Shown in pieces: positions 39,673-64,000 of a DNA stretch of 64,000 nt (the first letter of the stretch is position 1; every line of letters starts with the position of its first letter). A program made the translations under genes and the position numbers. The stretch lies in IMG/VR virus record IMGVR_UViG_3300032053_000004, positions 64,001 to 128,000 of that record; one strand, given 5' to 3'. Source of the stretch: a virus (lineage: Duplodnaviria > Caudoviricetes). The notes below the pieces were generated by a model. The model saw only the letters and a list, made by a program, of their open reading frames with translations, was not told the DNA's origin and ran no database searches.

Positions 39673-40911
39673 ATGCGCCAGCGTTCAACTTGGATCCGAT
39701 CAGCAAATGCACTACCCACTGCCCCGAAAGGGAAAGGGCGTCGTGCGGATATCTACAATATGAACCAGGAGCATCCACAGCCGTCTCCTGTTGAATACGA
39801 GAACGGAAGTCCGGACTCATGGGCAGAATCTCTTGCTCCGTATTCTCATATTGAAAAAGAATACGAAGGCGGCCATGTTAAGCGTAATGAGCTTAACTTT
39901 GCTGAATTCCGCGATGATACGTGGGATCACAAAGATGCCGATAAGTGGAACGGCAAAGGCAAGTACGATAACCATCGTAGTGCTTCCGAGCGTAAGGCTC
40001 AGGCTTGTGAGAAATTGGCGCGTGGTCTTCTTAAGACTGCCAATCCTAAGCTGATTGAAGATCAGGCTCTTGATTTCATGTGCCTTCCTCCTAACGTTGT
40101 AACGGCGACGATCAAGCGGATTCAGGAGACTTCTCCTGCAGCGCTTGCCCCCGCGAATCGTTACAATCGTGCATTGGCTTGCACTAAGCTTTCAGCTAAG
40201 ATGCTCGGAGACGAAGCTCCGGAGAATCTCGTTGAGAAGCTTGCCACGTTGTTCATGAATATTGATGACCCGACTCTGAAGTCCATGGTTCGGGTTGTTG
40301 CCTCGGTTCGTTTTGCTGAGCAGGATGAACAAGAGGAGCAACAGGAGCAACAGGGCCAGCAGGAGCAGCAGGGCCAGGATGAAGAGCAGCAGCAGGAGCA
40401 ACAGGGCCAGCAGGAGCAACAGGGCCAGCAGGAGCAACAGGGCCAGGATGAAGAGCAAGAGGAACAGCAAGAACAGCAAGCGCAAAATGAAGAATGCGCT
40501 ACTGGTTTGACGTCTGAAGAGATGTCCATGCTGGACCAAATGCTCAACCCGGGAATGGGTCAAGAAGCTCCGGGAATGGGTCAAGAAGCTCCGGGAGCTG
40601 AAGTTTCTCCACCGGCCATGCCAGCGATGGCCAGCGATTTCTCCATCTCCTTTGACGGAGATGATGACGGCTCAGAAGGTCTCCCTCATATATCGTCACT
40701 TGACGTTTTGTTCAATGACGATCCTGAGGTCCAGGCTCAACGTGAAATCGTTGCCGCTTCTCAGGAGCAACGGGCTCGTGAGCAAGGTGGATACTCGATC
40801 AGTCGTACTGCCTCTGCTAAGGGCGCAAAAAAGCTTGGTCAAGTCACTAAGCCCAAGGCCTCGAGCATTGATACGGCGCTCGAGAATCTCTGGGAGCGCC
40901 CAGGCGCGTGA
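39673..40911 (+). CDS. scaffolding protein (putative)
   Basis: Lies between protease and MCP; helical with a Q/E low-complexity tract; SD GGAGG. Confidence 0.7.
   Translation: MRQRSTWIRSANALPTAPKGKGRRADIYNMNQEHPQPSPVEYENGSPDSWAESLAPYSHIEKEYEGGHVKRNELNFAEFRDDTWDHKDADKWNGKGKYDNHRSASERKAQACEKLARGLLKTANPKLIEDQALDFMCLPPNVVTATIKRIQETSPAALAPANRYNRALACTKLSAKMLGDEAPENLVEKLATLFMNIDDPTLKSMVRVVASVRFAEQDEQEEQQEQQGQQEQQGQDEEQQQEQQGQQEQQGQQEQQGQDEEQEEQQEQQAQNEECATGLTSEEMSMLDQMLNPGMGQEAPGMGQEAPGAEVSPPAMPAMASDFSISFDGDDDGSEGLPHISSLDVLFNDDPEVQAQREIVAASQEQRAREQGGYSISRTASAKGAKKLGQVTKPKASSIDTALENLWERPGA
40318..40488 (+). repeat. Gln/Glu-rich tandem coding repeat (EQQGQQ)n
   Basis: Repeated GGAGCAACAGGGCCAGCA-type units. 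Confidence 0.9.
40549..40596 (+). repeat. 21-nt tandem repeat (PGMGQEA)
   Basis: CCGGGAATGGGTCAAGAAGCT x2 plus CCGGGA. Confidence 0.9.
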
Positions 40912-40915
40912 AATT

Positions 40916-40960
40916 CTGGTCTGTCCTTCATGATCCGAAAGGAAGTGAAGGACAGACTGG
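40916..40960 (+). other. long RNA hairpin just after the scaffold stop
   Basis: GTCTGTCCTTCA (40919-30) pairs with TGAAGGACAGAC (40946-57); internal loop and TCC-GAAA-GGA cap; no U-tract. Confidence 0.7.
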
Positions 40961-41129
40961 CGAGATTGAATACTCAAACGTAGATAATTCTAACAGCGAC
41001 GGAGGTCTTAGCGGGATAACTGGAAGGTTCAGAAGAAATAATAGAATTCGCAACTAGGTTGGACTGAATTCGTTGTTTTGGAAGAATTGAAAGTATGTTC
41101 TAGCTTGGACCGAAGGAGACTGGGTTAAA

Positions 41130-41798
41130 ATGGGAACGATTGGTGGACAGGCATCGGGCGATTTTCGCCTCTCAACAAGTGCCCTGCGTATTCTGTATTC
41201 GCTCATAAAGGACTCAATTGAAGTTCTTGCGACGGATGCGTTTACTCAGGCAAACCCGTCTGTGGTGATCACGCCTTCAGCTCGTTCGACGACGCTTCCT
41301 GCTAACGTAAAGCGGGGCGTTCTCGGTGGGTCGATTGCGTTTGTTCGCCCAGACATTGGCTCGAACACCGTTGGTGGTGCGGCCGTTACGGGTGGTGGTG
41401 CATTCTTTGCACGTACTCGCCCTCTCGGTCTGTTCATCAACGATTCTCTGGGTAATGCCTATGAGAATACACCAGGCGTGGCATCCGGTAAGGGTCCATT
41501 CCTTCGCGGTGGCTCGATTGGATTGAAGGTCTATGAGACCCAGGTCCAGACGACTGTCGGTGGCGGCGTTGTTGGTACGGCGTTAGTTTATAACGTCGGT
41601 GATATCCTTTACGCTAGCGTAAATGGATTTGCCACCAATCGCTGGCAGGACTCATACGAGACGCAATGGATTACCGTTGCGACAACTGGTTCTGGCGCGG
41701 CTGGCGCGGCCATTGAGCCGGACGTAACTCGTGTTGGTGTTGTCATTTCGCCCCCGGATGCTAACAGCACCGAAATTTTCATAGCTCTCTATCTCTAA
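41130..41798 (+). CDS. putative head decoration/cement protein
   Basis: 222 aa, G/A/V/T-rich, immediately upstream of MCP; SD GAAGGAG. Confidence 0.55.
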   Translation: MGTIGGQASGDFRLSTSALRILYSLIKDSIEVLATDAFTQANPSVVITPSARSTTLPANVKRGVLGGSIAFVRPDIGSNTVGGAAVTGGGAFFARTRPLGLFINDSLGNAYENTPGVASGKGPFLRGGSIGLKVYETQVQTTVGGGVVGTALVYNVGDILYASVNGFATNRWQDSYETQWITVATTGSGAAGAAIEPDVTRVGVVISPPDANSTEIFIALYL

Positions 41799-41823
41799 TA
41801 GATAGAAGGAGAAAGCATACCAA

Positions 41824-42708
41824 ATGTTCGGCGTTCAAGCAGTTGATAACTCCGTTAAGGAGTCAGTCGTTGACAAATTCATTGGTAGCCCGTCAGGACG
41901 TAAGCGTCTTGCGGCTTCCATGGTCCAGCCGCTCCGTGAGCGGAGGGACTACTCGTCCGTTGGCCGTAAGACCTTTTTGGTTGAACAGCTTCCGGATGGC
42001 GCTCTCCCGATTTACGATAAGGACCCCGATGTGGTCGCTTACGTGATCGGTGAGGAAGGCGAGTCGATCACCGCCGTGGCTAAGCCACGCCGTGTGATTT
42101 TCCCGCTTTTCGAGATCGCGGCCCTCCCCAAGGCCCCACTTACGCAGGTTAAGGAGCGTCGCTACGACCTTCTCAAGCGTATGCAGGATCTTGGTAAGGC
42201 TCAGATCCAGGCCGCAGAAGACGATCGAGTTTTCTCGATTCTCGATGCGATCGCGGTTAACGGATTCGACTCGCTTCCGGGCGGGACGAACCCGGATATC
42301 CCGGTTGTGGCTCCGCTCTCGCCGGCCGTCCTCGCGGACGCGTACGCCGAGATCGAGCGTCACGATCTCCGGGTGGCCCGCGTTTACCTGAACGCTACGG
42401 ATTATGCTGATATCCGTAAGTTCGGTCGCGACGTCCTGGACATTGAGTCCCAGGCGTCCCTCTGGAAGACCGGTATGATGGCAACTGGGTGGAACGCCCA
42501 GTTCATCGTGTCGCGTCTCGTTCCCGCAGGTGTCGTGTATTGTTGCTGCGAGCCCGAGAACTTCGGTCGAATCCCGGTCCGTACGGAGCTTACGGTTCTC
42601 TCGGCGGACAATCCCGAAGACCGGACAATCGGATTCTCGATGTTTGAGAACCTTGGGATTGGAGCATTCAATCCCCGCGGTCTCGTTCGTCTGATCATCA
42701 CCCGCTGA
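41824..42708 (+). CDS. major capsid protein (HK97-fold presumed)
   Basis: 294 aa after protease, scaffold and decoration genes; strong SD; strongly biased codons; followed by a terminator; C-terminal GIGAFNPRGLVRL. Confidence 0.85.
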   Translation: MFGVQAVDNSVKESVVDKFIGSPSGRKRLAASMVQPLRERRDYSSVGRKTFLVEQLPDGALPIYDKDPDVVAYVIGEEGESITAVAKPRRVIFPLFEIAALPKAPLTQVKERRYDLLKRMQDLGKAQIQAAEDDRVFSILDAIAVNGFDSLPGGTNPDIPVVAPLSPAVLADAYAEIERHDLRVARVYLNATDYADIRKFGRDVLDIESQASLWKTGMMATGWNAQFIVSRLVPAGVVYCCCEPENFGRIPVRTELTVLSADNPEDRTIGFSMFENLGIGAFNPRGLVRLIITR

Positions 42709-45369: not shown

Positions 45370-45591
45370 ATGAAAAATGGAGATTATTTTCGTGTAATAA
45401 ACGAAAAATCTAAATATTTTAATTATTATGGAAAAATAATTCGTTCAGGCCCTCCGGGGCAAGCTAAATGTTTAGTTCAAAATAGAAATATGGATTTGAG
45501 TGACGATATAGGAGGTATGGTTAATTTTGATTTATCGGAACTTATCATAGCAAATGATGAAGTTGAAACTTATAAGCTCTTAAATAGTTAA
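45370..45591 (+). CDS. small KOW/SH3-like protein
   Basis: MKNGDYFRVI.....YFNYYGKII pattern; G-TAATTT 5 nt before the ATG. Confidence 0.55.
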   Translation: MKNGDYFRVINEKSKYFNYYGKIIRSGPPGQAKCLVQNRNMDLSDDIGGMVNFDLSELIIANDEVETYKLLNS

Positions 45592-45782
45592 TTAAGTTCT
45601 TCGGAGCCTTCAAATAATTCTTTTTCAGCTAAAAGCTCAACTTTATACCCATCAGCGGTGAATTCTGAAATTACCCAGTCCATTTTTGAAACATAATCAG
45701 GGATACTATCTATGTCTAGAATACGTTCTTGAATACGTTCTTTTCCTTCTTTCTTTATTCTGAGAGTTATTAAAATCTTCAC
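45588..45782 (-). CDS. small hypothetical protein
   Basis: 64 aa; G-TAAAGT 5 nt before the GTG. Confidence 0.65.
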   Translation of the reverse strand: MKILITLRIKKEGKERIQERILDIDSIPDYVSKMDWVISEFTADGYKVELLAEKELFEGSEELN

Positions 45783-45807
45783 CCGGTACTTTACTGTCTT
45801 TCGGTTT

Positions 45808-46152
45808 TTAAACCGAAAGAAGAGCCATCGTCGTTTCTTCGTCGGAGGCTCGTCGGAGCTTTTCTAAAATAACTTCTTCTGGACCATAAAAAAAGAATAC
45901 TTCTCGTCCAAATTTATGATAAAATATTTCTCGTCCTTCTGCCTTTTCTTGAAAATTCACGCCTCTTAAGAAAATATTGTAAGGGCTGCTCGTATCAGAT
46001 TCTTTTCTATATTTGTTGGCCCTGTCAGATAAAGTTGAGTCTGACAGTTTATATAATAATCTTTCCCCTATACTCTCGTCCGTAACATTTTTCCCAGCTA
46101 TGGAAGTTAGTCTTCGGAATTCTTTATCTATTGATTTCGACTGCTTTACCAT
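45808..46152 (-). CDS. hypothetical protein
   Basis: 114-aa ORF in the minus-strand block. Confidence 0.7.
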   Translation of the reverse strand: MVKQSKSIDKEFRRLTSIAGKNVTDESIGERLLYKLSDSTLSDRANKYRKESDTSSPYNIFLRGVNFQEKAEGREIFYHKFGREVFFFYGPEEVILEKLRRASDEETTMALLSV

Positions 46153-46190
46153 ATACTAATATACAATTTTCGATCTCTCATTTACAAAGA

Positions 46191-46514
46191 CTAAGAGTCA
46201 ACGACTTCTTCGCATAAAGCTTCATTCATCATTTTCTCAATTTCTTCTTTTTCCATTCCCGATTTAATTGCTGCTTTCATTGCTTCATTAAGGGCAAATT
46301 TTGGATTAATAAAATTTCCGAAATTTGTATTTCCAATAGTTATATGTTGCCCTCCAGGCATTCCATTATATGGGATAGTTTGTTGACCCATCGGATCTAT
46401 TATCCAAGTTCCGTTCATATTCGGATATATAGCGGTATCCCCAATAGTAATCGTTGTTTGAGAAATATTTGTTGATGTTTGAGGAATATACAAGTTGTGA
46501 TCACCTAATGACAT
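46191..46514 (-). CDS. hypothetical protein
   Basis: 107 aa; SD GGAGG. Confidence 0.7.
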   Translation of the reverse strand: MSLGDHNLYIPQTSTNISQTTITIGDTAIYPNMNGTWIIDPMGQQTIPYNGMPGGQHITIGNTNFGNFINPKFALNEAMKAAIKSGMEKEEIEKMMNEALCEEVVDS

Positions 46515-46532
46515 GTTGGCCTCCGTAAAACT

Positions 46533-48461
46533 TTACTTTTCTTGAGCAAATCCTCCTAGTGGGGTGACTTGCTCTTCGTCATTTATCTCGTATGGGGATA
46601 TGTCTCTTGATGGAATGAAGTCATCATCTTCAGACCCTTTCCCATTTACTCCAGGTTTTCCATAAACAGGCTGCTCTTTTTTCCCCTTAATTAATTCTTC
46701 TTCGGTTATCCAGCCTCGATTTCCCATAACATCCATATTCATTCTTAAAAATAGCATTCTGTCTTGCGATAACTCAGATCCTTCCACAAATTTAACAGAT
46801 TTCGGGTTCGGGAGAATAGACGCTAAAAACATTGATTGGCTGAGACTTAGTTGATAAGGCTCTTTCTTAAAATAATAATAGGATGCTGGTCCTATTCCGT
46901 ATAAATTCGGACCATATTCGATTATGTTTAGATAGGTTTCTATAATTTGGTCTTTAGATAAAGACTGTTCAAGCCATTTGGCTAAAACAAGCTCTTGTAA
47001 TTTTCTCGCGATGTTTTTATTTCTATCTAGCCAAAGATTTTTGGCTAATTGCATTGTTATAGTGCTTCCTCCTCGTATAAATTTCCCGAACACTAAATTA
47101 TCTCTTAAAGAACCTTCTAAGGCTTGAAATATGATCCCGCCATGCTTTCGAAACCCCGGATCTTCGAATAATCGAACTCCTAATTCTACATATGGAGACA
47201 TTTCGGATATTGGAGTCCAGTCAGATGTCCCTGGACCTACAATAACTTCTTTCGGTTTCCCGTCTGAAGAGTATATCTTATGCTTAAATGTCTTTCTAAA
47301 TCTTTTCGTATCAAGTTCTTCTGGAACTTTTGTTATACTGCAGTCTATTTTTTGTTGAATCCAAGCGTCTGATTTGCTTAATCTTCCAAAATTCTTGTAA
47401 TCATATAATATTTTTATTTTTCCTTTTATTTTTCCATCAGATTCAATCCCTTTAATTTTTTCGTTCATTCCATCGGGAATTGAGTCTAGCAAATTTTGAC
47501 AAGGAGTTTCGGGTAAATCAATTTCGAAAAGAATTAAATATTTATCCTTGCTGAAAGATATCGGTGTTTTAATTTTCATGAATTCTAACATATTATCTGT
47601 GTGTAATATTGTTCCATCTAAACTTATATGCCCTGTTGTTTCTATTTTAAATTTTGGTATATCTATGGTCTCTTTGGATAAAACCCTATGGTTTATCTTG
47701 ATCGGACCAATTTCCGCATTTGTTTTGAATTCTATTTTTTCTCCTTCATCTAATTTTAAAAATATGTTAGAATCTATAGATGTACATTCTAAATCCACAA
47801 GTTTGGGAGGATTTTCTTTTGAACATTCTTTCAATAGTTTAAAAGAGATCCCAGACTCATTCGGATTTATTGATATTTTTGCTGGTCCATAAGAATTTAT
47901 GGAGAAAGATTCAATTTCTGTTTTGAATTTAGATACTTTTTCATAAATTCTAAAAAGTTTTTCTAAATTTCTCGGTTCTTCTGATTTTTCTTTTTTCTTA
48001 GTTTTTATTGATAACTCTTTGGAATTTATAGATTTTATTTGTTTTTGATTCAATTCTATTTTTGTATTTTTTGAATTTATAACGAAAGACTCATTCTCAA
48101 ATAAAATTCTTTCCATATCTATGAATATTTGTTCTCCAATTTTCTTTATATTCCGAACATTAGTTATGAATTTTCCTCTCTTATCAGTATAAATAACCTC
48201 TCCTGCTCCTGTCTCTATATTTTGACTTGTAAAATTAATCTTTAATAGTTTGAATTTAGCGTTATTTTTATTTTTATCAAATACTTGAACATCTGATATT
48301 TTCACTTCATGCAGAGACGGCCAAGCCCACCCCATCTTTACTTCTAAATCAAATTCTTGAGCTTTTGCTTTAATTTTTGTATGAGCAAAAGAATTAAACC
48401 AAATTAAAGCGATTGATATTATTATGAATAGGAATATTGAAAACTTGATCAGTTTTTTCAC
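46533..48461 (-). CDS. membrane-anchored monofunctional peptidoglycan transglycosylase (GT51)
   Basis: N-terminal TM helix; GT51 motifs EDPGFRKHGG, GGSTITMQLAKN, RKLQE, KDQIIETYLN, LASILPNP; no transpeptidase domain; start moved to GTG 48461. Confidence 0.92.
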   Translation of the reverse strand: MKKLIKFSIFLFIIISIALIWFNSFAHTKIKAKAQEFDLEVKMGWAWPSLHEVKISDVQVFDKNKNNAKFKLLKINFTSQNIETGAGEVIYTDKRGKFITNVRNIKKIGEQIFIDMERILFENESFVINSKNTKIELNQKQIKSINSKELSIKTKKKEKSEEPRNLEKLFRIYEKVSKFKTEIESFSINSYGPAKISINPNESGISFKLLKECSKENPPKLVDLECTSIDSNIFLKLDEGEKIEFKTNAEIGPIKINHRVLSKETIDIPKFKIETTGHISLDGTILHTDNMLEFMKIKTPISFSKDKYLILFEIDLPETPCQNLLDSIPDGMNEKIKGIESDGKIKGKIKILYDYKNFGRLSKSDAWIQQKIDCSITKVPEELDTKRFRKTFKHKIYSSDGKPKEVIVGPGTSDWTPISEMSPYVELGVRLFEDPGFRKHGGIIFQALEGSLRDNLVFGKFIRGGSTITMQLAKNLWLDRNKNIARKLQELVLAKWLEQSLSKDQIIETYLNIIEYGPNLYGIGPASYYYFKKEPYQLSLSQSMFLASILPNPKSVKFVEGSELSQDRMLFLRMNMDVMGNRGWITEEELIKGKKEQPVYGKPGVNGKGSEDDDFIPSRDISPYEINDEEQVTPLGGFAQEK

Positions 48462-48474
48462 ATGAGAAAGTACA

Positions 48475-49017
48475 TCACGAAGCTGCAATTTTTGCTGCTA
48501 TGACCCGAATTTTTTCTTGAACTTCGTGGATTAAAGCAATTTTCTTTATAGAACCTGTTCTCCCCATATCGTTTATTATTTCTTTCGCAACTGATCCTAT
48601 CAGATCTGTTGTTATATACTTCTTTACGATTTTTTCAAGATATGGGTCATCTTCTTGTTCTGAAAAAGGTATTTCACTTGGTGGAACTGGTTTTGCTGCA
48701 AGTGCGTAATCGAGATCACCTTGCAGTTTTCTTACCATCAATTTTAAAGTAGAATCTTTTGGTCTAATAAAAATATCTTTAACTATTGAATTACTAATTT
48801 CGTCATCTAGTATTCTTTCCGCATCTTGACGAATTTTAACCGGGTCTTTTTGACTTTTTGCTGGCATACCTTGAGTTATATTTTGAAATATTAAATTGAC
48901 TAATGTTTCATTTAATGAATCTAAAGCGTCGTATATAGCTCCTTCTATTAATTTGGTTCCAAATTCTTTTTGAAGATAGTCTTGTAAATCGTGGCTGAGT
49001 GCAGCAATTCTTCCCAT
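48475..49017 (-). CDS. helical hypothetical protein ending in an IAAKIA motif
   Basis: Probable start ATG 49017; C-terminus RTGSIKKIA...IRVIAAKIAAS. Confidence 0.7.
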   Translation of the reverse strand: MGRIAALSHDLQDYLQKEFGTKLIEGAIYDALDSLNETLVNLIFQNITQGMPAKSQKDPVKIRQDAERILDDEISNSIVKDIFIRPKDSTLKLMVRKLQGDLDYALAAKPVPPSEIPFSEQEDDPYLEKIVKKYITTDLIGSVAKEIINDMGRTGSIKKIALIHEVQEKIRVIAAKIAAS

Positions 49018-49040
49018 GAAAACCACAATTTACAAGAATT

Positions 49041-49328
49041 TTATGCTTCAAGCATTTCTCTGGTCAGAAGAATTTCCTTTAGTGGAAACTCACTCTCCCA
49101 GTCTATACTTATCCTAGATCCATCCCAAATCATGGGGACTGAGATATCATCCGTAAGGAGACGCCCGGAGAACGATCTCAGGTATTCCATTGTCTCTATG
49201 AGATCGTCTGGACACTCTATAGATATTTCGTTTGAAGACGCGTCCGTTAGGAGAATATTATATATCCCATTGGAATGAGGTCCTTTCGGCTGCAGTCTAG
49301 TGATTTCGATTAATTTATAATTTTTCAT
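49041..49328 (-). CDS. hypothetical protein
   Basis: 95 aa; G-TAAAAT 5 nt before the ATG. Confidence 0.7.
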   Translation of the reverse strand: MKNYKLIEITRLQPKGPHSNGIYNILLTDASSNEISIECPDDLIETMEYLRSFSGRLLTDDISVPMIWDGSRISIDWESEFPLKEILLTREMLEA

Positions 49329-49921: not shown

Positions 49922-50968
49922 ATGGAAGCTATTATTTGGAAACGTGGTGATTATCAAAAGTTTTACGCCAATATGAAAGTGCGTATTGGCGCTAATACTC
50001 ATAATCTTGTTGCTATTGAAGCTGGAGACGAACTTGAATATGATGGGACTATGCTCCGCTATGCTGGAGCAGAGGTTCCCCAACCTTCACTTCGTGGGGC
50101 GGTGAAGGCTGGATGGCTTTCTTCCGCTTCCGATCAACAAGGCGTCCATATAGCTACTACTAACCCAAGTAGGAACATAGCTAAAGCTCAAACAGTTAAT
50201 ACTGATCTTTCCCGAGTCCAGCGTGGAGTTCCGAGGGTTATGGAGACGGATTCTCTTGATGAAGAGACTGTTCTTCGAGTTGATGATCGCGGGCGTGATA
50301 ATGGGACTAGGCACGGGGACCGGAAAATTTTGACATCCTCGGATCGTCGTTCTGTTAGGGGCATGGAAGTACAAAATAGTGCTGATGATTCTCAAGATGG
50401 GGCCCCTGTTGGTCGTATCAGATCAGCGGCAAAAGCTTCTTTTGATGTTTCAAAAGATACTGCGTATAGCAATACGATGAGGAAGTTGAATGAGCCTGAT
50501 GCAATAGGTAAGGCTAAAATAAATAAAATTACTAGAGAAGGTGTTGAAATAACTACTAATGTCGGGAGAGTCGACCGAACAATTACGGAAGATATCGGAG
50601 ATGAAGGGGTAACCGTTGCCTCAGTCCGTCATACCTCTAGAGCATCAAGCGAAGGTATTGATATAGAGGATACTAGTGGAACTCATCGGAAAGCCGATAA
50701 GAAATCTCAAAAAGTAGAATCGTATAGAAATGAAACAACGGATCTGGTAATAAATACGAAAATCCCTGCAAGGGTTAGAATTGCTAGACACATAGACCCC
50801 AGTTTCCCGGCCAGTTGGCCCTTTGAAGGGAAAATGGCGGAGAGACTTGAACGTGTGAAGAACTATGACTCACTTTCTCCTCTTTTCCTCGAGGCTCTTT
50901 ATGCGGCCGAAGGCGATAATTTTAGGAAAGTTCTCCATACTGAATATTCAAAACAATTTCCTAAGTAA
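49922..50968 (+). CDS. hypothetical protein (globular termini, low-complexity middle)
   Basis: 348 aa; SD AAGGAGG with GTACAAT upstream. Confidence 0.8.
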   Translation: MEAIIWKRGDYQKFYANMKVRIGANTHNLVAIEAGDELEYDGTMLRYAGAEVPQPSLRGAVKAGWLSSASDQQGVHIATTNPSRNIAKAQTVNTDLSRVQRGVPRVMETDSLDEETVLRVDDRGRDNGTRHGDRKILTSSDRRSVRGMEVQNSADDSQDGAPVGRIRSAAKASFDVSKDTAYSNTMRKLNEPDAIGKAKINKITREGVEITTNVGRVDRTITEDIGDEGVTVASVRHTSRASSEGIDIEDTSGTHRKADKKSQKVESYRNETTDLVINTKIPARVRIARHIDPSFPASWPFEGKMAERLERVKNYDSLSPLFLEALYAAEGDNFRKVLHTEYSKQFPK

Positions 50969-50992: not shown

Positions 50993-51355
50993 ATGAGCCA
51001 TAATAAAACTGCTGGCATAACGATATATATACAAGAGGAACTTTCCGACGCTCGTTTGCGTTGTGATGAACTCAAGTCTTATATTGTTAAAGCCATAAAT
51101 CTAATTCATTCTAGCGATAAGAAGGATCATATATATGCCGTAGCCGGAGATCTCGTTCATGCTGCTCCAGAAGCTTTGCTTAAACTGGAGAGAGCTCTCG
51201 AGGCTACGGCTATGGCTGTAAATAAAATGGATTATGAAGAGTTGCGCCAAATTCTTCGTCCCGAAAAAGTCGATGAACTTGAAAGAGTTTTAGATGATAT
51301 AAGAATAAATATACCCCGGAGAACTGGGGATAAAATGAAATTTAACGAGGATTGA
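50993..51355 (+). CDS. helical hypothetical protein
   Basis: 120 aa; N-terminal KTAG. Confidence 0.75.
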   Translation: MSHNKTAGITIYIQEELSDARLRCDELKSYIVKAINLIHSSDKKDHIYAVAGDLVHAAPEALLKLERALEATAMAVNKMDYEELRQILRPEKVDELERVLDDIRINIPRRTGDKMKFNED

Positions 51356-52782
51356 ACTTAGTGTATGTTTGTGGTGTGAACGAGAAAGGATTGGATAACA
51401 AATCAAAGATTAGTATTAACTGTATATGTGGAAAATTGTTTCTTATTTCGTTTAAACAGTTAAAACACAATAAGAAAATTAATAGATCAAATATTTGTAG
51501 AAGTTGTTCAATCAAAAAACTCTGGGAAAACCCTGATTATAGAATTAGGGTTAATGATTCTCTTAAATCGCTTGATAAAACACTGTTAAAACAAAAAATA
51601 TCTAAAAAATCCAAGTTAATGTGGGAAAATTCTGAATACAGGGAAAATCAAAAAAATATCCATACGAGTTCCGACTATATTAAAGAGACTTCTGAACGAT
51701 CAAAAAAACTATGGGACAATGATGATTTCAGAACAAATCAACTAAAGATAAGAAACGATCCGATTTGGATTGAAAAACAATCCAAATCTATGAAGAAACT
51801 ATGGGAAAACTCTGACTATCAAAATAGAGTTTCTAGTTCTTTATCAAAAGTTTTCATTAAGGGTTACAAGTCATCACTGGAAATAGTTACGCATAATATA
51901 CTTGAGTCCATGCATGTTCGTTTTGAAGAGCAAAAACCTTTAGGCCCTTATATTTTTGATTTTTTCTTACCAGAACATGATACTTTCATAGAATGTCAAG
52001 GTGAATACTGGCACTCAATCAAAAAGGCTTCGTCTAAAGACGCTTCTAAGTTTTCTTACTTTGAAAAATCTCGTCCTAATTCTAAAATTTTATATTTGCA
52101 TGAACGAGATTTTTTAAATCCGAAGATTGTAGAGAAAAAAATAGAAGAAATACTGAAAATTAAAATTAAAGTTGATATCGTTGATTTTTCTTTTTCTGAA
52201 GTAATACTGAAGGAGTTGGACCCTAAGATAAAGAATAAATCACACAATTCCTTACCGAAAGAATTTTTAGACTCATTCCATTATGCTCAGTTCGGTAGGT
52301 CATCCAAGGTAATATATGGAGCTTTTTTGAAAGAGAAATTAATTTCTGTTTGTAAATTTTCTACTCCTATAAGAAAAGAAGTTGCAACTTCTTTAAATTA
52401 TTCTTACTCGGAAGTTTTAGAACTCGATCGTTTTTGCATACATCCGGAGTATCAAAAGAAAAACTTCGCCTCTTGGTTTATTTCGAAGTGTATGAAAATG
52501 GTTTTTGAGAAATACTTAAAGATCAATCATTTAGTATCATTCGCTGATTCGACCTATGGACACTCCGGGGTCATATATAAAGCCGCAAATTGGAAAGAAA
52601 TTGGAAATACTAAGCCAGATTATCATTACATAAATGATGGCGGTTGGATATTGCATAAAAAAACTCTTTATAATCATGCGGTTAAAATGGGGAAAAATGA
52701 AAAAGGGTACTCATCAGAGTATGGATATAAGAAAGTATATGGAAAGTTAAAAACAAAATTTATATTTTCTCGGTTTAATTGA
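51352..52782 (+). CDS. fusion: Zn ribbon + WxNxxYR repeats + Vsr/DUF559-like endonuclease + Mom-like GNAT acyltransferase
   Basis: CICG..CRSC; LWENPDYR, MWENSEYR, LWDNDDFR, LWENSDYQ; GPYIFDFF...FIECQGEYWH; ELDRF...LVSFAD...GHSGVIYKAANW..IG. Confidence 0.8.
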   Translation: MNLVYVCGVNEKGLDNKSKISINCICGKLFLISFKQLKHNKKINRSNICRSCSIKKLWENPDYRIRVNDSLKSLDKTLLKQKISKKSKLMWENSEYRENQKNIHTSSDYIKETSERSKKLWDNDDFRTNQLKIRNDPIWIEKQSKSMKKLWENSDYQNRVSSSLSKVFIKGYKSSLEIVTHNILESMHVRFEEQKPLGPYIFDFFLPEHDTFIECQGEYWHSIKKASSKDASKFSYFEKSRPNSKILYLHERDFLNPKIVEKKIEEILKIKIKVDIVDFSFSEVILKELDPKIKNKSHNSLPKEFLDSFHYAQFGRSSKVIYGAFLKEKLISVCKFSTPIRKEVATSLNYSYSEVLELDRFCIHPEYQKKNFASWFISKCMKMVFEKYLKINHLVSFADSTYGHSGVIYKAANWKEIGNTKPDYHYINDGGWILHKKTLYNHAVKMGKNEKGYSSEYGYKKVYGKLKTKFIFSRFN

Positions 52783-52794
52783 GAATTTATTTAG

Positions 52795-53850
52795 ATGTCC
52801 AGTAATTCTCCTCGTGGTTTTATATTATCTGATGCGGCAATGTATGCGTTTGAGTGTCAAGAAGTATATCCTGATTTATTGAGTTTTGCTGTTGCAATTC
52901 CCGATCATTTAAAACAGTTATTTTTAGTCCCAGTTACGGTTGAACCGATGTCGATTGCATCGGTGGCTTCTCGTGTTGCATTTGATGATAGTGGGGCCGG
53001 ATATGAAACAGATTCGGCTGATTTGTTTGGGACCAAAACTTTTGTTGTTGAAAATGATCCGGAGCCAACCGTAACGGATTCCGACCCCGGATCTATGTTT
53101 GATATTGATGGATATTGGGGAAAGACCCATCAAGATGATGGGACGGACGAAAATTGGCAAGTCCCGTCAGACACAAGTTACATGTCTGACATTGATATCA
53201 CCAATTATTGGTCTTACCCTTATAGATCTGAAGAAAAACCTCGTCATTCTTCATTACGGCAAGTAGCATTCTTCAAATTGTCTCTTAAACCTGAGAGGCT
53301 AATTACTGAAGTCCCGAAGAAAATCAAAGAAAATGCGGAAGTTTGTTCTGTTAGTTTAGTATCATATGATAAGCGTGGTCGGATTTTTTCTTTTAAAGTT
53401 GATTGCGGGAATAAACCGAAAAATGTCCGAGCTTCTTTAACTAGTTTAAATGAAGTTGCTATGACTTGTTCTTGTCCGTTCTGGAGATGGAACGGACCCG
53501 AATTTAATGCTAAATCAAATAAATTTTTGCTAGGAAAACCTAACGGAAAGGCTTCTCCTCCGAATGTTCGTGATCCTGATCGGGAGTTTTGGCTCTGTAA
53601 GCATACTTTTGCTGTTTTAAAACGTTTAGACACTTTCGTCCAACAGATAGTTGATGAAAACTGGGGTTTGGACGATGATGATCTTCTTAGAGAAATAGAC
53701 GAAGAATGGGATAGATTAATTGCAGTTTCTGAAGAGACTTCAGAAGAACTAGAAGAAGAAAACCCAGAGATAGAAGTTAAAATTGAGGAGGAGGAACCAG
53801 AGGAGGAACCCGAGGTTGAGGAGGAACCTGAGGAGGAATTGAAAAAGTAA
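52795..53850 (+). CDS. SWIM zinc-finger protein with acidic termini
   Basis: MTCSCPFW...LCKH (CxC-xn-CxH); SVASRVA motif; Glu-rich tail. Confidence 0.8.
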   Translation: MSSNSPRGFILSDAAMYAFECQEVYPDLLSFAVAIPDHLKQLFLVPVTVEPMSIASVASRVAFDDSGAGYETDSADLFGTKTFVVENDPEPTVTDSDPGSMFDIDGYWGKTHQDDGTDENWQVPSDTSYMSDIDITNYWSYPYRSEEKPRHSSLRQVAFFKLSLKPERLITEVPKKIKENAEVCSVSLVSYDKRGRIFSFKVDCGNKPKNVRASLTSLNEVAMTCSCPFWRWNGPEFNAKSNKFLLGKPNGKASPPNVRDPDREFWLCKHTFAVLKRLDTFVQQIVDENWGLDDDDLLREIDEEWDRLIAVSEETSEELEEENPEIEVKIEEEEPEEEPEVEEEPEEELKK

Positions 53851-53869: not shown

Positions 53870-54265
53870 GTGCAATACGATTACGCTTGTTCAAAATGCA
53901 AAAACGTCCAAGAAGAAAGTTGTTCTGTAAAGGATTTTAAGGATTTCCATCCTAAATGTAATAAATGTAAATCTTCATGTAATTATCAATTTAATCCATC
54001 TGGCATACAATTTGTTTTAAAAGATGGGCCGTCCGGATCTTGGCCATCTAAAGGTAATAGGATTAAAGGACAAATGAATAAAAAGAACGATCAAATGATC
54101 CGTCGCCAACGGGATCGTTATGGTGAGGGTCAAAAAGCTATACCAAATTTTGAAGGTAAAGAAACTGAGTCTTGGAGAGAGGCTAAAAATATAGCCATGA
54201 AGGAACGCGGGGCTCAATCCGCGGCCACTTACGATAAAATCATCAAAAAAGACAAGAGAGTTTGA
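53870..54265 (+). CDS. FmdB-family zinc-ribbon protein
   Basis: YDYACSKC.....CNKC......PSGIQFVLKG-like segment, GSWP. Confidence 0.8.
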   Translation: MQYDYACSKCKNVQEESCSVKDFKDFHPKCNKCKSSCNYQFNPSGIQFVLKDGPSGSWPSKGNRIKGQMNKKNDQMIRRQRDRYGEGQKAIPNFEGKETESWREAKNIAMKERGAQSAATYDKIIKKDKRV

Positions 54266-54290: not shown

Positions 54291-54932
54291 ATGGCTAGAA
54301 TTTTTAGTGTTTACAGGCGTAAAAATAAGTTAGTTGACTTGAATTGGCCTTATCGGCCGGGTGTTGCTAGCTATCGAATGAAATTTGCTGGTAATTTTGA
54401 CGGGGTATTTGCTTTATTTGAGACCGTTTCCTTAAATGGAAAACAATCTTTAACCGTCCTAAATAACGGTTATACTGATAATCAATTTCGTGGTAAAACG
54501 AGATTTTTATTTAATCCAGATGATTATACAGCTTCTGGGTTGGATGATACCAAACCAATGTATATAAAGTTAGCCCCGGTAGATTTTGCTGGAGTCATCG
54601 GGGCTGACGAGGCCATGCAGTTAATTCTTCCATACAGCCCGGAGCCGAATCGAGCTTTGGTTTTGAATGGAAATGCTCCTACTCCAGGCCCTCTTGAAAT
54701 TCAACTCCCAATGCTTGTCCATAATATGATATTTACAAATTTAGACCCTGCCAACGTACTTAACGTTTCTTTTGAACCGACCGGTCCTGTATATGAAATT
54801 GGACCTTTGGCTACTACTAGTTCCATATATCCTTCAATATATCCTAACGCTAGTCAATTATTCATATCTGGAGCAGGTGGGGTCGTACCCATTAACGTTC
54901 TAGCATCGATCAGAAATAACCCAACCACTTGA
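54291..54932 (+). CDS. putative virion structural protein
   Basis: 213 aa, beta-rich, start of the structural cluster. Confidence 0.6.
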   Translation: MARIFSVYRRKNKLVDLNWPYRPGVASYRMKFAGNFDGVFALFETVSLNGKQSLTVLNNGYTDNQFRGKTRFLFNPDDYTASGLDDTKPMYIKLAPVDFAGVIGADEAMQLILPYSPEPNRALVLNGNAPTPGPLEIQLPMLVHNMIFTNLDPANVLNVSFEPTGPVYEIGPLATTSSIYPSIYPNASQLFISGAGGVVPINVLASIRNNPTT

Positions 54933-59156: not shown

Positions 59157-62100
59157 TTGTCAGTAGACAACCCAAGAGGTGCAAGAGGCTTTATCGGACC
59201 GACAGGCCCGGCTGGATCGACAGGTCCAACGGGCGCTATTGGGCCTGTCGGTACTCAAGGCTCTCCGGGTGCTCCTGGTCCAACTGGTCCAACTGGTGCT
59301 ATTGGTCCTATTGGTACTCAAGGTGTTACTGGGCCTCAAGGATCTCCAGGCCCCACAGGCCCGATAGGTCCGACAGGTCCGACAGGTCCGCAGGGTTCAC
59401 CTGGTTCACCTGGTTCCACTGGATTGATTGGACCTCAGGGGTCTCCTGGTTCACCTGGTCCCACAGGGCCTCAAGGTTCTCCCGGTGTAACCGGTTTAAC
59501 CGGAGCAACGGGTCCTCAAGGTTCCCCTGGTTCCCCTGGTTCCCCTGGCCCCACAGGACCTCAGGGATCACCTGGATCACCTGGCCCCACTGGACCTCGA
59601 GGAACTCAAGGGTCACCTGGTCCAACAGGACCACAGGGGTCTCCTGGTTCCCCCGGCCCCACTGGTGTAACAGGGCCTCAGGGCTCTCCTGGTTCCCCCG
59701 GCCCCACTGGACCCCAGGGTTCTCCTGGCCCCACTGGACCTCAAGGATCGCCGGGTAGTCCTGGTCCAACTGGACCACAAGGTTCACCTGGTTCACCTGG
59801 TTCACCTGGATCACCTGGCCCAACTGGCCCACGTGGTTCTCCCGGTTCACCTGGTTCTCCCGGTTCACCTGGTTCTCCCGGCCCCACTGGACCCCAGGGT
59901 TCTCCTGGCCCCACAGGGCTTCAAGGAACCCAGGGTTCACCTGGTTCTCCTGGACCAACTGGACCAACTGGACCCCAGGGTTCTCCTGGCCCTACAGGCC
60001 CTCAGGGTTCTCCAGGTTCTCCTGGCCCAACTGGTCCTACTGGACCCCAGGGATCACCTGGCCCCACTGGACCCCAGGGTTCTCCTGGCCTGCGTGGGGT
60101 TACTGGAGCTACCGGTCCAACCGGAGCGCGTGGCCCCACTGGACCAACGGGGCCAGTTGGACCAACGGGGCCTCAGGGTTCTCCTGGTAGTCCCGGTCCT
60201 ACTGGTCTGCAAGGCCCGATAGGATCCCCTGGTCCAACCGGTCCTCAAGGTTCTCTTGGATCCCCAGGTCCCGCCGGTCTACAAGGGCCGGTTGGTTCAC
60301 CTGGATTAACTGGACCTCAAGGCCCTCAGGGTTCTCCTGGCCCAACAGGACCAACAGGACCAATTGGTCCTGTACCTTCTTTTTATCCTGCTCCTGTTAG
60401 TACAGCTGTCTTTTCTGGTTTTCAGGCTACACATTCAATATTCACTTCAATTCCTAGCTCTTATATATCTTTAAATTTAAATTCTGAAGCTGATATTATT
60501 TCTTTCTTAAATGTTGCTATTGATTCTTCTGGTGGATCGGTAAACAACACTCCAATAATAAGAATTGTTATCGATAACATACCTGGACCCGAATTTCAAT
60601 TATTCAACGCAAACGCTCAACCTGAAAATTCTTCGGCGGCTTATGTTCTTCGTCGTCCTGCTGGCGTTCACACTTTATGGGGAGAGTGGCGTCGCTCGGC
60701 TGGTAATCGAGTTATGGTTTTGGAGAATGGCTCTCTCGTAGCTTTCTCCAATCAAGGGGTTCAAGGAGCGACTGGCCCACAAGGGCCAACCGGTCCCGCA
60801 GGTGCAACCGGTTCCCAAGGATTAATAGGTTCTCAAGGATTCCAAGGTTCTCCTGGTCCTATTGGACCTCAAGGTGCAACAGGACTGGTCGGACCGACAG
60901 GACCGATTGGTTCTCCAGGCCCGACAGGTCCTCAAGGTGCAACTGGTTTAGCAGGTGAAACTGGTCCTATCGGTCCTCAAGGAACTCAAGGAACAACAGG
61001 AACTCAAGGAGCAACAGGTGTCCAAGGCGTAACTGGATCGACAGGTCCTCAAGGCTCGATTGGTTCCCAAGGATCACCCGGGCCACCTGGTCCAACTGGT
61101 GCCCAGGGTGCAACTGGTGCCCAGGGTGCAACTGGTGTCCAGGGTGCAACTGGATCGACAGGTCCTATCGGTCCACAAGGAACTCAGGGTTCTCCAGGGC
61201 CAACCGGTCCGCAAGGTTCTCCAGGATCAACTGGTGCTGCAGGGTCTACGGGTGTTACAGGACCGCAGGGAAACCCTGGCTCACCGGGTCCTACTGGTCC
61301 AACCGGTCCTCAGGGTTCTCCCGGTCCGACTGGACCTCAAGGATCACCAGGTTCAACCGGACCACAAGGTTCCCCTGGTTCTCCAGGATCGACTGGCGCA
61401 GCAGGTTCCACAGGTCCTCAGGGTTCCCCTGGCTCACCTGGCCCCACTGGACCTCAGGGTTCCCCTGGGTCTCCAGGTCCGACTGGTCCTGCTGGGTCCA
61501 CTGGTGTTACTGGGCCCCAAGGCTCACCGGGGTCTCCAGGACCAACAGGTCCTCAGGGTTCCCCTGGGTCTCCAGGTCCGACTGGTCCTGCTGGAGCCAC
61601 TGGAGCCACGGGTCCTCAGGGCTCTCCAGGTCCTACAGGCCCAGTGGGTCCGACTGGAGTAACTGGGGCCACAGGGCCACAGGGTTCACCTGGTTCTCCA
61701 GGGCCAACTGGCGCACCGGGTCAGACCGGGGTTACTGGACCTCAAGGTTCACCCGGTCCGACTGGTCCTCAGGGTTCACCCGGTAGTACAGGACCAACAG
61801 GTCCTCAGGGTTCCCCTGGCTCACCTGGCCCCACTGGACCTCAGGGTTCCCCTGGGTCTCCAGGTCCGATTGGTCCTCAAGGTTTCCCAGGCTCACCAGG
61901 TCCAACTGGCGCCGCTGGCCCCCAAGGAAGTCCAGGTTCTCCAGGGCCAACTGGCGCAGCTGGGCCTACCGGTGTTACAGGTGCGACTGGGCCTCAAGGT
62001 TCACCTGGGTCTCCTGGCCCCACAGGCCCTCAAGGCTCACCTGGCCCCACAGGCCAAGCTGGTGCTACTGGCGCTCAAGGAAGCTCCGGATCCCCAGGGC

Positions 62101-64000
62101 CTACAGGAGCAGCAGGTCCAACAGGTCCAACAGGTTCCATCGGTCCTCAAGGAACTCAAGGAACTCAAGGTTCACTTGGCTCCCCAGGCCCAACGGGACC
62201 TCAAGGCTCCCCTGGACCGACAGGTCCCCAAGGTCTCACGGGTGTAACTGGTCCACAAGGCTCACCAGGTCCAACTGGTGCAGCAGGTTTTACTGGGGTT
62301 ACTGGACCTCAGGGTTCACCTGGTCCCACCGGTCCGGCAGGGCCTACTGGCGTTACGGGGCCTCAAGGTTCTCCTGGTCCGACTGGCCCACAGGGTTCTC
62401 CAGGAAGTCCTGGACCCACGGGAGCAGCAGGTCCAACCGGAGTTATTGGAGCCACTGGGCCTCAAGGTAGTCCTGGACTTACGGGACCGCAGGGCTCACC
62501 CGGTCTTACAGGTCCTCAAGGAAGTCCAGGCTCCCCAGGTCCAACGGGTCCTGCTGGATCTACTGGAGTAACGGGAGCAGCTGGCCCCGCAGGTGTCACT
62601 GGTGCAACTGGTCCTCAGGGTAGTCCAGGAAGTCCTGGGGCTACTGGACCTCAAGGATCACCTGGATCGCCAGGACCTACTGGACCTCAAGGCTCCCCAG
62701 GCTTGCCTGGCCCGACTGGACCTCAAGGCTCACCAGGCAGTCCGGGATCGCCTGGCCCTACGGGGCCACAAGGTAGTCCTGGTCCAACAGGACCACAAGG
62801 CTCACTTGGTTCTCCGGGCCCAACAGGTCCCCAGGGATCTCCTGGTAGTCCAGGTGTAACTGGAGTGGCCGGGCCTATTGGTGCAACTGGAGCTACTGGT
62901 CCTCAAGGCTCCCCCGGTCCTACTGGTCCTCTTGGATCTCCAGGTCCCATTGGACCTCAAGGGTCTCCTGGATCACCTGGCCCCACTGGTGCTGCGGGTC
63001 CACAAGGGTCTCCTGGAAGTCCAGGCCCCACTGGAGCAGCTGGCCCCACAGGTGTCACTGGTGCGACTGGGCCTCAAGGCTCACCTGGGCCACAAGGACC
63101 TCAGGGAACTCAAGGTAGCCCTGGTCCCACTGGGCCTCAGGGCTCACCAGGCTCGCCTGGTCCCACTGGAGCTATTGGAGCTATTGGAGCCACTGGTCCT
63201 CAAGGCTCCCCCGGTCCTACTGGTCCTCAGGGATCACCTGGCCCCACAGGCCCCTTAGGTAGCCCAGGAACACAGGGATCCCCAGGCTCGCCTGGTCCTA
63301 CTGGTCCACAGGGCTCTCCAGGACCTACTGGTCCACAGGGAAGTCCAGGTAGCCCTGGACCAACGGGTGCTGCTGGACTTACTGGTGTTACAGGCGCTAC
63401 TGGTCCACAGGGCTCTCCAGGACCTACTGGTCCACAAGGTTCACTAGGTAGTCCTGGTCCAACCGGTCCTCAGGGTAGTCCGGGATCAGCGGGGCCTCAG
63501 GGTTCGCCAGGACCAACCGGACCTCAAGGAGCAACTGGACCGCAAGGTTCAACAGGGCCACAAGGATCTCTTGGATCCCCAGGACCAACTGGGCCTCAGG
63601 GATCACCAGGACCAACTGGTATAGCTGGCCCCACTGGTGTCACAGGAGCAACTGGACCTCAAGGGTCACCTGGGTCCCCAGGTCCGACTGGTCCTCAGGG
63701 ATCACCTGGTAGCCCTGGACCAACCGGTCCGCAAGGTTCCCTTGGATCCCCTGGACCAACGGGAGCTGCTGGAGCCACAGGTGTCACTGGAGCCACTGGA
63801 CCTCAGGGTTCTCCGGGTCCAACCGGACCTCAAGGTTCTCCAGGTTCACTTGGCCCCACTGGGCCTCAGGGTAGCCTGGGTCCCACAGGGCCACAAGGTA
63901 GCCCTGGTTCTCCAGGTCCAACTGGCCCTCAAGGATCACCAGGAAGTCCTGGTCCTACAGGAGCAGCTGGCCCTACTGGTGTTACCGGTGCCACAGGCCC
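59157..64000 (+). CDS. very long collagen-like fibre protein with an internal globular domain (3'-truncated, missed by the ORF track)
   Basis: Frame open from TTG 59157 ([16 protein letters not shown]..) and still in Gly-X-Y phase at base 64000; about 128-aa non-collagen beta domain at 60375-60755. Confidence 0.93.
59178..60374 (+). repeat. collagen Gly-X-Y block 1 (about 133 triplets)
   Basis: Gly codons at 59178 and 60366 are 1188 nt = 132x9 apart; GPT/GPQ/GSP dominate. Confidence 0.95.
60756..64000 (+). repeat. collagen Gly-X-Y block 2 (at least about 360 triplets)
   Basis: Gly codons at 60756 and 63960 are 3204 nt = 356x9 apart. Confidence 0.95.

Follow-up and report, generated by a model that had tools for sequence, protein, structure and literature searches.

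A predicted membrane-anchored GT51 peptidoglycan polymerase with a putative AsmA-like domain in a lineage of huge phages

The GT51 gene and its predicted protein

The window analysed here is the stretch of 64,000 nucleotides that covers bases 64001-128000 of a 202-kb IMG/VR virus record (IMGVR_UViG_3300032053_000004) with an estimated completeness of 47%. The source phage is uncultured, its genome measures roughly 400 kb, and the plus-strand genes of the window include those for a terminase, a portal protein, a prohead protease, a clamp loader, a class II ribonucleotide reductase and RecD2. On the minus strand lies an open reading frame (ORF) for a protein of 651 amino acids (aa) that we read as a transmembrane anchor followed by a DUF748/AsmA-like domain and a peptidoglycan glycosyltransferase domain of family GT51. 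This reading is based on hydropathy, on AlphaFold2 (AF2) models and Foldseek searches, on DUF748 matches in relatives and on a conserved pair of cysteines. Its sequence points to a monofunctional GT51 that is anchored in the membrane and has its catalytic residues intact. Its features are as follows.

46533-48488, minus strand: whole ORF, 651 aa, with transmembrane anchor, putatively AsmA-like beta domain and GT51 domain
48390-48452, minus strand: single N-terminal transmembrane helix, about residues 13-33, from hydropathy
47229-48353, minus strand: all-beta N-domain, residues 46-420, putatively DUF748/AsmA-like (AF2, Foldseek, VIA, DUF748 in relatives)
47499-47501, minus strand: invariant C330 of the N-domain
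47340-47342, minus strand: invariant C383 of the N-domain
46665-47228, minus strand: GT51 peptidoglycan glycosyltransferase domain, residues 421-608 (Pfam, PDB alignments, Foldseek, invariant residues)
47163-47165, minus strand: catalytic E442 of motif 1
47160-47162, minus strand: D443 of motif 1
46992-46994, minus strand: second glutamate, E499, in the motif RKLQE
46536-46664, minus strand: acidic disordered C-terminal tail, residues 609-651, with a predicted local distance difference test score (pLDDT) <50 from residue 621 and no Pfam match

The GT51 domain is recognised by Pfam PF00912 (Transgly) over residues 421-580 with an E-value of 1.1e-44 and 152.5 bits against a cut-off of 27, and it is the sole domain matched; a genome-level search scores the same match at 156 bits. 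The best sequence matches in the PDB are the glycosyltransferase domains of class A penicillin-binding proteins (PBPs), namely A. baumannii PBP1a, S. aureus PBP2 and Aquifex PBP1a (E ~1e-21 to 1e-22), and S. aureus MGT is matched at E ~1e-14. In motif 1 the sequence FEDPGFRKHGG aligns with EDxxFxxHG, so that E442 and D443 correspond to the ED pair of S. aureus PBP2, of A. baumannii PBP1a and of the Aquifex peptidoglycan glycosyltransferase. The PDB alignments place motif 2 (GGSTITMQLAKNLW / GGSTITMQLAKN / GGSTITMQ) on GxSTxTQQ, motif 3 (RKLQE, with E499) aligns with RKxxE, and motif 4 reads KDQIIETYLN in the window protein as compared to KxxILExYLN. An alignment of 32 sequences (the window protein, 22 phage homologues and nine short phage-type metagenomic proteins) shows E442, D443, E499 and most of motifs 2-4 to be invariant, and nearly all motif 2-4 positions are conserved at >=90% in the family alignment. 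The original prediction, made from the DNA letters alone, had described all five GT51 motifs as intact. This holds for motifs 1-4 including the catalytic glutamate, but motif 5 (RRxxVL) is represented only by a loose DRMLFL at about residues 575-581, in a stretch that is gapped and poorly conserved in the family alignment.

The AF2 model of the full protein, built on the 32-sequence alignment, has pLDDT values mostly >90 across the GT51 part. Foldseek superimposes this part on GT51 structures from Aquifex and S. aureus (target TM-scores 0.69-0.84); 3NB6, 3D3H and 2OQO are matched at E 5e-10 and target TM-scores of 0.81-0.84, in agreement with the lysozyme-like two-lobed GT51 fold. A transpeptidase domain (PF00905) was detected neither in the protein, where only about 43 disordered residues follow the GT51 domain, nor in the 202-kb record, nor in five complete relatives. 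In the same five genomes no SEDS polymerase was found either, and no YkuD-type L,D-transpeptidase was found in the 202-kb record. The absence of a transpeptidase noted in the original prediction is thus confirmed. Because the protein is predicted to be an anchored monofunctional GT51 whose catalytic residues are intact and which is under purifying selection (see below), we agree that it should be classed as a synthase-type, wall-building enzyme rather than as a lysin.

The predicted anchor is the only segment that rises above 1.6 in a hydropathy scan (about residues 13-33); it falls within a helix predicted by AF2 over residues 3-45, and a similar N-terminal anchor begins all phage and bacterial homologues. 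GT51 and AsmA-like proteins all have an N-terminal anchor. Behind it, residues 48-417 are modelled as all-beta, as expected from the transmembrane anchor and long beta-rich region that had been described earlier. Since the search with the whole model was dominated by GT51, residues 1-425 were folded alone with 44 homologues for a search of their own. The result is a continuous antiparallel beta meander (pLDDT 84.7), for which the top Foldseek matches are LPD-3/BLTP1 (E 1.3e-3, probability 1.0), the N-terminus of Vps13, LptDE and TamB, all of them weak (E 1e-3 to 5e-3). In the VIA comparison the Z-scores of 7-8.8 fall in the generic beta-sheet range, and the matches comprise porins at high root mean square deviation (rmsd) and LptC/LptA/LptH at an rmsd of 3.4-4.3 Å. 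Among the 44 family members aligned, nine are matched by Pfam DUF748 (PF05359; best 8e-12), and a precomputed PF05359 annotation exists for many bacterial relatives; the N-domain of the window protein itself has no DUF748 match at E 0.1. Taken together, this is weak evidence that the modelled N-domain is DUF748/AsmA-like, with the fold of bridge-like lipid-transfer proteins. All phage and bacterial members in the alignment retain both C330 and C383; the two likely form a periplasmic disulfide, which would fit the oxidising environment of that compartment. We infer a bitopic protein of the inner membrane in which everything beyond the anchor, the AsmA-like domain as well as GT51, is periplasmic; the N-terminal anchor and the invariant cysteine pair should support this placement.

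The ORF starts with TTG at 48488 and ends with a stop codon at 46533-46535. Position 48461, at which the gene had previously been taken to end, is an in-frame GTG (residue 10), and a start at this codon would give the N-terminus MKKLIKF..., which is typical of the homologues. A leaderless-type start, as proposed in the original prediction, finds no support: the start codon of the GT51 gene abuts or overlaps the stop codon of an upstream co-directional ORF of 183 aa; the absence of a Shine-Dalgarno motif is common in the window, being shared with 31 of the 48 other genes; and the promoter motif CGTATC-N7-start is not enriched in the window and has zero copies upstream of the GT51 start. Shine-Dalgarno motifs are present at the remaining 17 of these 48 genes and are strongest at the structural genes starting at 39673, 41130, 41824 and 49922. 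A scan of 45.2-50 kb for sigma-70 promoters and terminators returned no more sites than shuffled sequence.

Residence in phage genomes and probable bacterial origin

The genomic surroundings of the gene are described by two blocks.

45588-49328, minus strand: six ORFs including the GT51 gene, inside a plus-strand genome
49922-54932, plus strand: conserved block of genes for proteins of 348 aa (49922-50968), 120 aa (50993-51355), 351 aa (52795-53850), 131 aa (53870-54265) and 213 aa (54291-54932) plus a mobile Mom-HNH gene; its border is the GT51 slot in relatives

The location in a minus-strand block among small genes had been recognised correctly. In six other contigs (L003, L004, L006, L007, L008 and L010) the GT51 gene stands divergent and directly beside homologues of the conserved block, and in a seventh (L031) the first two block genes lie ~3.7 kb from it. 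These syntenic contigs are independent, come from different samples and include genomes closed by direct terminal repeats (DTR); the window differs from them only by three extra small ORFs between GT51 and the block. The GT51 gene has the same guanine-plus-cytosine (GC) content as the flanking DNA (0.33), and a 99.7%-identical copy is present on a second contig from a different sample. Two further genomes, the DTR-closed, complete G028 and G027, keep the same block without GT51 and have other genes at its border, which identifies the slot as a variable accessory site. It lies at the edge of a conserved structural-gene block. The synteny and the absence of the gene from the same slot in other phages confirm that it is phage-encoded, and a chimera with host DNA, which had been set beforehand as one finding that would overturn the claim, is ruled out by the shared slot, the matching GC content and the copy on the second contig.

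Homologues occupy 34 loci in IMG/VR, most of them on contigs 130-512 kb long, and a TerL that is 47-65% identical to TerL of the window is present in 17 of 25 of these records. When members of the clade were chosen by TerL alone, PF00912 was present in 12 of 23 contigs of >=250 kb and in 7 of 14 genomes with a completeness of >=90%. The distribution in related phages, which had been suggested as a check, hence reveals a gene carried by many members throughout a clade of phages of 300-510 kb. Trees of TerL and of GT51 were compared for ten genomes and show the same deep split into a group A (the window, G001, G005 and G006) and a group B (G008, G013, G014, G016 and G017); the pair of G013 and G008 is common to both trees. 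There is one conflict, G022, which combines an A-type TerL with a B-type GT51. Proteins of group A have 650-720 aa, and nearly all of the other phage branch 530-600 aa; the local GC content of the loci ranges from 0.36 to 0.68. These data indicate, at the level of sequence comparison, an old acquisition with mostly vertical descent and amelioration, repeated loss and at least one phage-to-phage exchange. They further indicate that the transfer would predate the split of the two terminase subclades in the 300-510-kb lineage and that the gene has since been shortened.

In four close phage pairs the ratio of nonsynonymous to synonymous substitution rates (dN/dS) is 0.08-0.16 for the whole gene, with 0.02-0.15 for GT51 as compared to 0.13-0.17 for the N-domain. 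Such values indicate that purifying selection continues on both domains.

Two GT51-bearing genomes have no match to the window TerL: G011 (392 kb, CheckV completeness 91%; locus L016) and G020 (169,027 bp with inverted terminal repeats, CheckV completeness 100%; locus L028). Other phage lineages may thus have the gene as well, or the terminases of these two genomes are too divergent or split. Split TerL matches were observed in six other relatives (G003, G015, G018, G023, G024 and G025), in which two match pieces lie within one frame of 1118-1205 aa as compared to 646 aa in the window; this suggests an intein or another insertion.

The neighbouring genes gave few matches. The five small ORFs of the minus-strand block are orphans that have no homologue near GT51 in the relatives and no Pfam match; Pfam likewise returned nothing for the conserved 348-aa and 351-aa neighbours, and PHROGs nothing for the neighbours of GT51. 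The GT51 protein itself has a weak PHROGs match (phrog_33002, a family of unknown function, 1.4e-8). No partner gene is conserved together with GT51 across both phage subclades. In subclade B the neighbours include a vWA protein (783 aa), a nucleoside 2-deoxyribosyltransferase-like protein and a NUDIX-NrtR regulator; their linkage is not fixed. An endolysin-like protein with Peptidase_M15_4 and PG_binding_1 domains is encoded 3-4 kb from GT51 at several loci (L019:10418-11347, minus strand; also L015, L017, L020, L021 and L035), so that wall-cutting and wall-building enzymes share a neighbourhood in some subclade-B phages, again without fixed linkage. The conserved block of the window is interrupted at 51352-52782 (plus strand) by the Mom-HNH gene, which encodes 476 aa with HNH/homing-endonuclease-like PHROG matches and a Mom-family domain (PF25680, 2.5e-23) and is absent from this place in most relatives.

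Outside phages, a pattern was scanned against 185,579 prokaryotic species, each represented by a single genome. Of the roughly 600 matches, the best 80 all belong to the Myxococcota, mostly to Polyangiaceae, Sorangium, Labilithrix and Sandaracinus; the matches include complete chromosomes of 12-15 Mb. The myxococcotal genes encode proteins of 770-830 aa with the same layout as the phage protein and have conserved neighbours of a housekeeping context, i.e. genes for a TadA-like deaminase, a PDZ-thioredoxin and a VWA-CoxE protein. At L045, L048, L050, L063, L111 and other Polyangia loci the deaminase gene follows immediately downstream on the opposite strand, and beyond it come the PDZ-thioredoxin/redoxin protein and then the VWA-CoxE protein. 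A periplasmic thiol oxidoreductase near the bacterial gene may be connected with the invariant cysteine pair.

A family tree of 116 rows, with supports from the Shimodaira-Hasegawa-like approximate likelihood ratio test (SH-aLRT), also holds metagenomic 'meta' rows whose origin, phage or bacterial, is left unassigned. It sets the family apart from the class A PBPs with a support of 100 and places the phage rows inside the diversity of the Myxococcota, in a 54-row clade (SH-aLRT 95) shared with one Polyangiaceae subclade; in the best tree all 35 phage and phage-like rows cluster together, with a weak support of 43. The comparison with bacterial PBPs, which had been proposed as a route to the donor, thus leads to a separate family nested in the Myxococcota. 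A profile of the N-domain alone collects 637 clusters (50% identity) at E <1e-30, and nearly all of its top 150 matches have 740-830 aa, which leaves room for a GT51 domain behind. The AsmA-like-GT51 family of bacteria is sizeable, mostly myxococcotal and uncharacterised. Because the phage rows are nested and the bacterial genes stand in a chromosomal context, we infer a transfer from bacteria to phage, in which the whole two-domain protein would have come from a chromosomal family of Polyangia (Myxococcota). The long beta region, for which the original prediction offered no identity, would then be a putative DUF748/AsmA-like domain inherited together with GT51 from this family. The donor lineage also provides a first, if weak, clue to the host of the uncultured phage clade.

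The closest known proteins are accordingly the chromosomal DUF748-GT51 proteins of Polyangia (Sorangium, Polyangium, Labilithrix, Sandaracinus and Pendulispora brunnea), which are annotated as 'transglycosylase domain-containing proteins', form the nearest clade in the tree and share 31-41% identity with the window protein over residues ~200-640. They have the same order of transmembrane segment, beta domain with cysteine pair and GT51, and no transpeptidase. They differ in their length of 770-830 aa, with an N-region of ~540-600 aa as compared to 365-510 aa in the phages, and in their origin from ~70% GC genomes in a housekeeping context, and the window protein remains below the Pfam DUF748 threshold. 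Monofunctional GT51 enzymes (E. coli MtgA, S. aureus MGT/SgtB; 3VMQ, 3HZS) share with the window protein a lone GT51 of the same fold, a single anchor and motifs 1-4. However, MtgA-type enzymes have ~240-270 aa and a transmembrane segment directly before GT51, whereas a beta domain of ~380 residues lies between the two in the window protein, which is therefore not of the MtgA type. Class A PBPs (PBP1a/1b, S. aureus PBP2, GT domain of Aquifex PBP1a, 2OQO/3NB6) give the best GT51 matches in sequence and structure, but they have a C-terminal transpeptidase that the window protein lacks, and its family forms a separate clade. With AsmA-like and bridge-like proteins (TamB, YhdP, DUF748; LPD-3/BLTP1, Vps13) and Lpt bridges the window protein would share an N-terminal transmembrane segment and a long repetitive beta-sheet; its N-domain is, however, much shorter, is fused to an enzyme and resembles them with weak scores.

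In our literature searches, neither a GT51 encoded by a phage nor a fusion of AsmA-like/DUF748 and GT51 domains was found to be described. GenBank phage records with GT51 were rejected as precedents, being class-A-PBP-like genes in doubtful contexts, many of them on short contaminant contigs. Two such candidates were the 731-aa 'mtgA' of Microcystis phage MaAM05, which adjoins glyS, and the 722-aa PBP of MW462191, which adjoins a LysE transporter gene.

Possible functions during infection

Phages are known for enzymes that cut peptidoglycan. The enzyme class of the protein described here is known, its domain combination and its viral setting are new, and the phages that encode it probably maintain or remodel the wall of their host during infection. 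Our preferred, though tentative, interpretation by analogy is that the protein is an active glycan polymerase of the periplasm, which maintains the wall of the host or makes it thicker and thereby prevents premature lysis and hinders competing phages. During a long infection of a diderm host the protein would polymerise host lipid II into glycan strands, which the host's own transpeptidases would cross-link. The sacculus would thus stay intact or become denser while host gene expression is shut down; premature lysis would be prevented, and rival phages or their lysins would find the wall more difficult to penetrate. The AsmA-like domain probably holds GT51 in place relative to membrane and wall or regulates it, or handles the lipid-linked substrate; in other words, it may act as spacer, regulator or substrate handler.

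A conserved and selected peptidoglycan polymerase in a huge-phage lineage would imply that the wall is actively maintained or rebuilt during long infections, which would be a new way of manipulating the host and might offer a new means to influence lysis timing and competition between phages. Apart from phages, the bacterial family of AsmA-like plus GT51 proteins, with its hundreds of sequence clusters, would link a lipid-transfer-type fold to cell-wall synthesis. A more far-reaching version holds that AsmA-like-GT51 proteins represent an undescribed class of wall synthases, in which a lipid-transfer-type groove feeds or positions lipid-linked substrate for a polymerase held off the inner membrane, and that the 300-510-kb phages have co-opted this class for lysis timing or for the exclusion of rivals. 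Phages would then possess a wall-building function as the synthetic counterpart of endolysins; we regard this version as rather unlikely.

The only experimental model for an extra GT51 during infection is Audmula, a lactococcal plasmid-borne anti-phage system with a transmembrane transglycosylase-type protein (PMC11381338, PMC12184496). Audmula thickens the wall (27.2 vs 22.6 nm), and cells that carry it lyse about three times more slowly with the endolysin of phage c2 (PMC12184496). It resembles the window protein as a membrane-anchored, GT51-like component of a phage-bacterium conflict. The original prediction had named lysis delay, superinfection exclusion and repair of the injection site as candidate roles, and for the first two Audmula offers an experimental precedent by analogy (PMC12184496).

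Several points weigh against our interpretation. Motif 5 is degenerate, and the assignment of the N-domain fold is based on weak structural scores. No transpeptidase or SEDS partner of phage origin was found in the genomes searched, and without the action of host enzymes the strands may therefore remain free of cross-links. The gene is dispensable, because half of the complete clade members are without it. Audmula, in turn, is encoded by the bacterium, acts against phages and works in a Gram-positive host, whereas the window gene resides in phage genomes; moreover, Audmula-type proteins have a polytopic membrane module and are encoded by host or plasmid, while the window protein has a different membrane part with one transmembrane segment; the likeness is drawn on the GT51 domain. 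Finally, this phage has a GC content of 33-38% as compared to about 70% in Polyangia. The genome of phiKZ has ~37% GC and that of its host ~66%. Because these two differ likewise, the mismatch would be compatible with a myxobacterial host.

A monofunctional polymerase might alternatively serve as a precursor sink in the course of host takeover. Lipid II would be converted to uncross-linked glycan that is degraded by lytic transglycosylases of the host; lipid II and undecaprenyl phosphate would be drained, growth, division or the synthesis of surface polymers would stop, and the wall would perhaps be primed for lysis. The conserved catalytic residues of a monofunctional enzyme are in agreement with such a role, as is the lack of a phage gene for a transpeptidase, an L,D-transpeptidase or a SEDS protein in the genomes searched, and according to Cho, Uehara and Bernhardt (2014) in E. 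coli treated with beta-lactams, glycan polymerisation uncoupled from cross-linking is reportedly a futile cycle that is toxic to the cell. We nevertheless consider a sink doubtful. The bacterial parents are monofunctional as well and stand in housekeeping contexts, hence the DUF748-GT51 architecture is not itself toxic; class B PBPs of the host are able to cross-link strands made by monofunctional GT51 enzymes; and the sole experimental precedent, Audmula, thickens the wall.

Dedicated superinfection exclusion is another explanation that we consider improbable to a similar degree. The gene would then be of the moron type, and its wall product or its beta domain would block tail penetration or DNA entry of rivals while the lysis timing of the phage itself is unaffected. 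A gene that occupies a variable accessory slot, is encoded on the other strand and is polymorphic in presence/absence would suit this explanation, as would the predicted membrane-anchored, periplasmic nature of the protein, and GT51-like proteins are found in bacterial defence contexts (PMC12184496). On the other hand, the effect of Audmula sets in at the lysis step, once the DNA has been injected, and for these huge phages, which are apparently lytic, the benefit would be confined to the period of infection.

It is very unlikely that GT51 is a mere binding module for lipid II or glycan and that the AsmA-like domain does the work, by lipid transfer or membrane tethering during infection. The N-domain resembles bridge-like lipid-transfer proteins and is itself under purifying selection (dN/dS 0.13-0.17); yet constraint within the gene is strongest on GT51, with dN/dS values down to 0.02, both catalytic glutamates and motifs 1-4 are kept across phages of 36-68% GC, and the beta domain of ~375 residues is shorter than AsmA-like proteins that span the periplasm. 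We give practically no credence to an artefact of misassembled host DNA or a decaying pseudogene: although the record is a metagenomic fragment of 47% completeness, six independent contigs, DTR-closed genomes among them, have the gene in the same slot with the same phage genes next to it, a 99.7%-identical copy lies on a second contig, the GC content equals that of the flanks, and the frame is open with dN/dS values of 0.08-0.16.

Other features of the window

The region 39673-42708 (plus strand) is GC-rich (0.52 at 40-42 kb) and contains three genes with the strongest Shine-Dalgarno sites of the window (CAGGAGG, GAAGGAGA); they probably encode the major capsid protein and other highly expressed head proteins, and an ORF of 412 aa in this region has no Pfam or PHROG match. 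The class II ribonucleotide reductase mentioned above (2058-4853, plus strand) is of the B12-dependent type and carries a TSCPD domain, and the RecD2-type helicase (8846-11056, plus strand) is full, with OB, HHH, SH3 and UvrD_C modules. At 59157-63998 (plus strand) an ORF of at least 1614 aa, which runs off the end of the window, consists nearly entirely of collagen triple-helix repeats (Pfam Collagen, E 2e-225) and has a local GC content of 0.58-0.63 as compared to 0.33-0.40 elsewhere in the phage; its product is probably a fibre or decoration protein.

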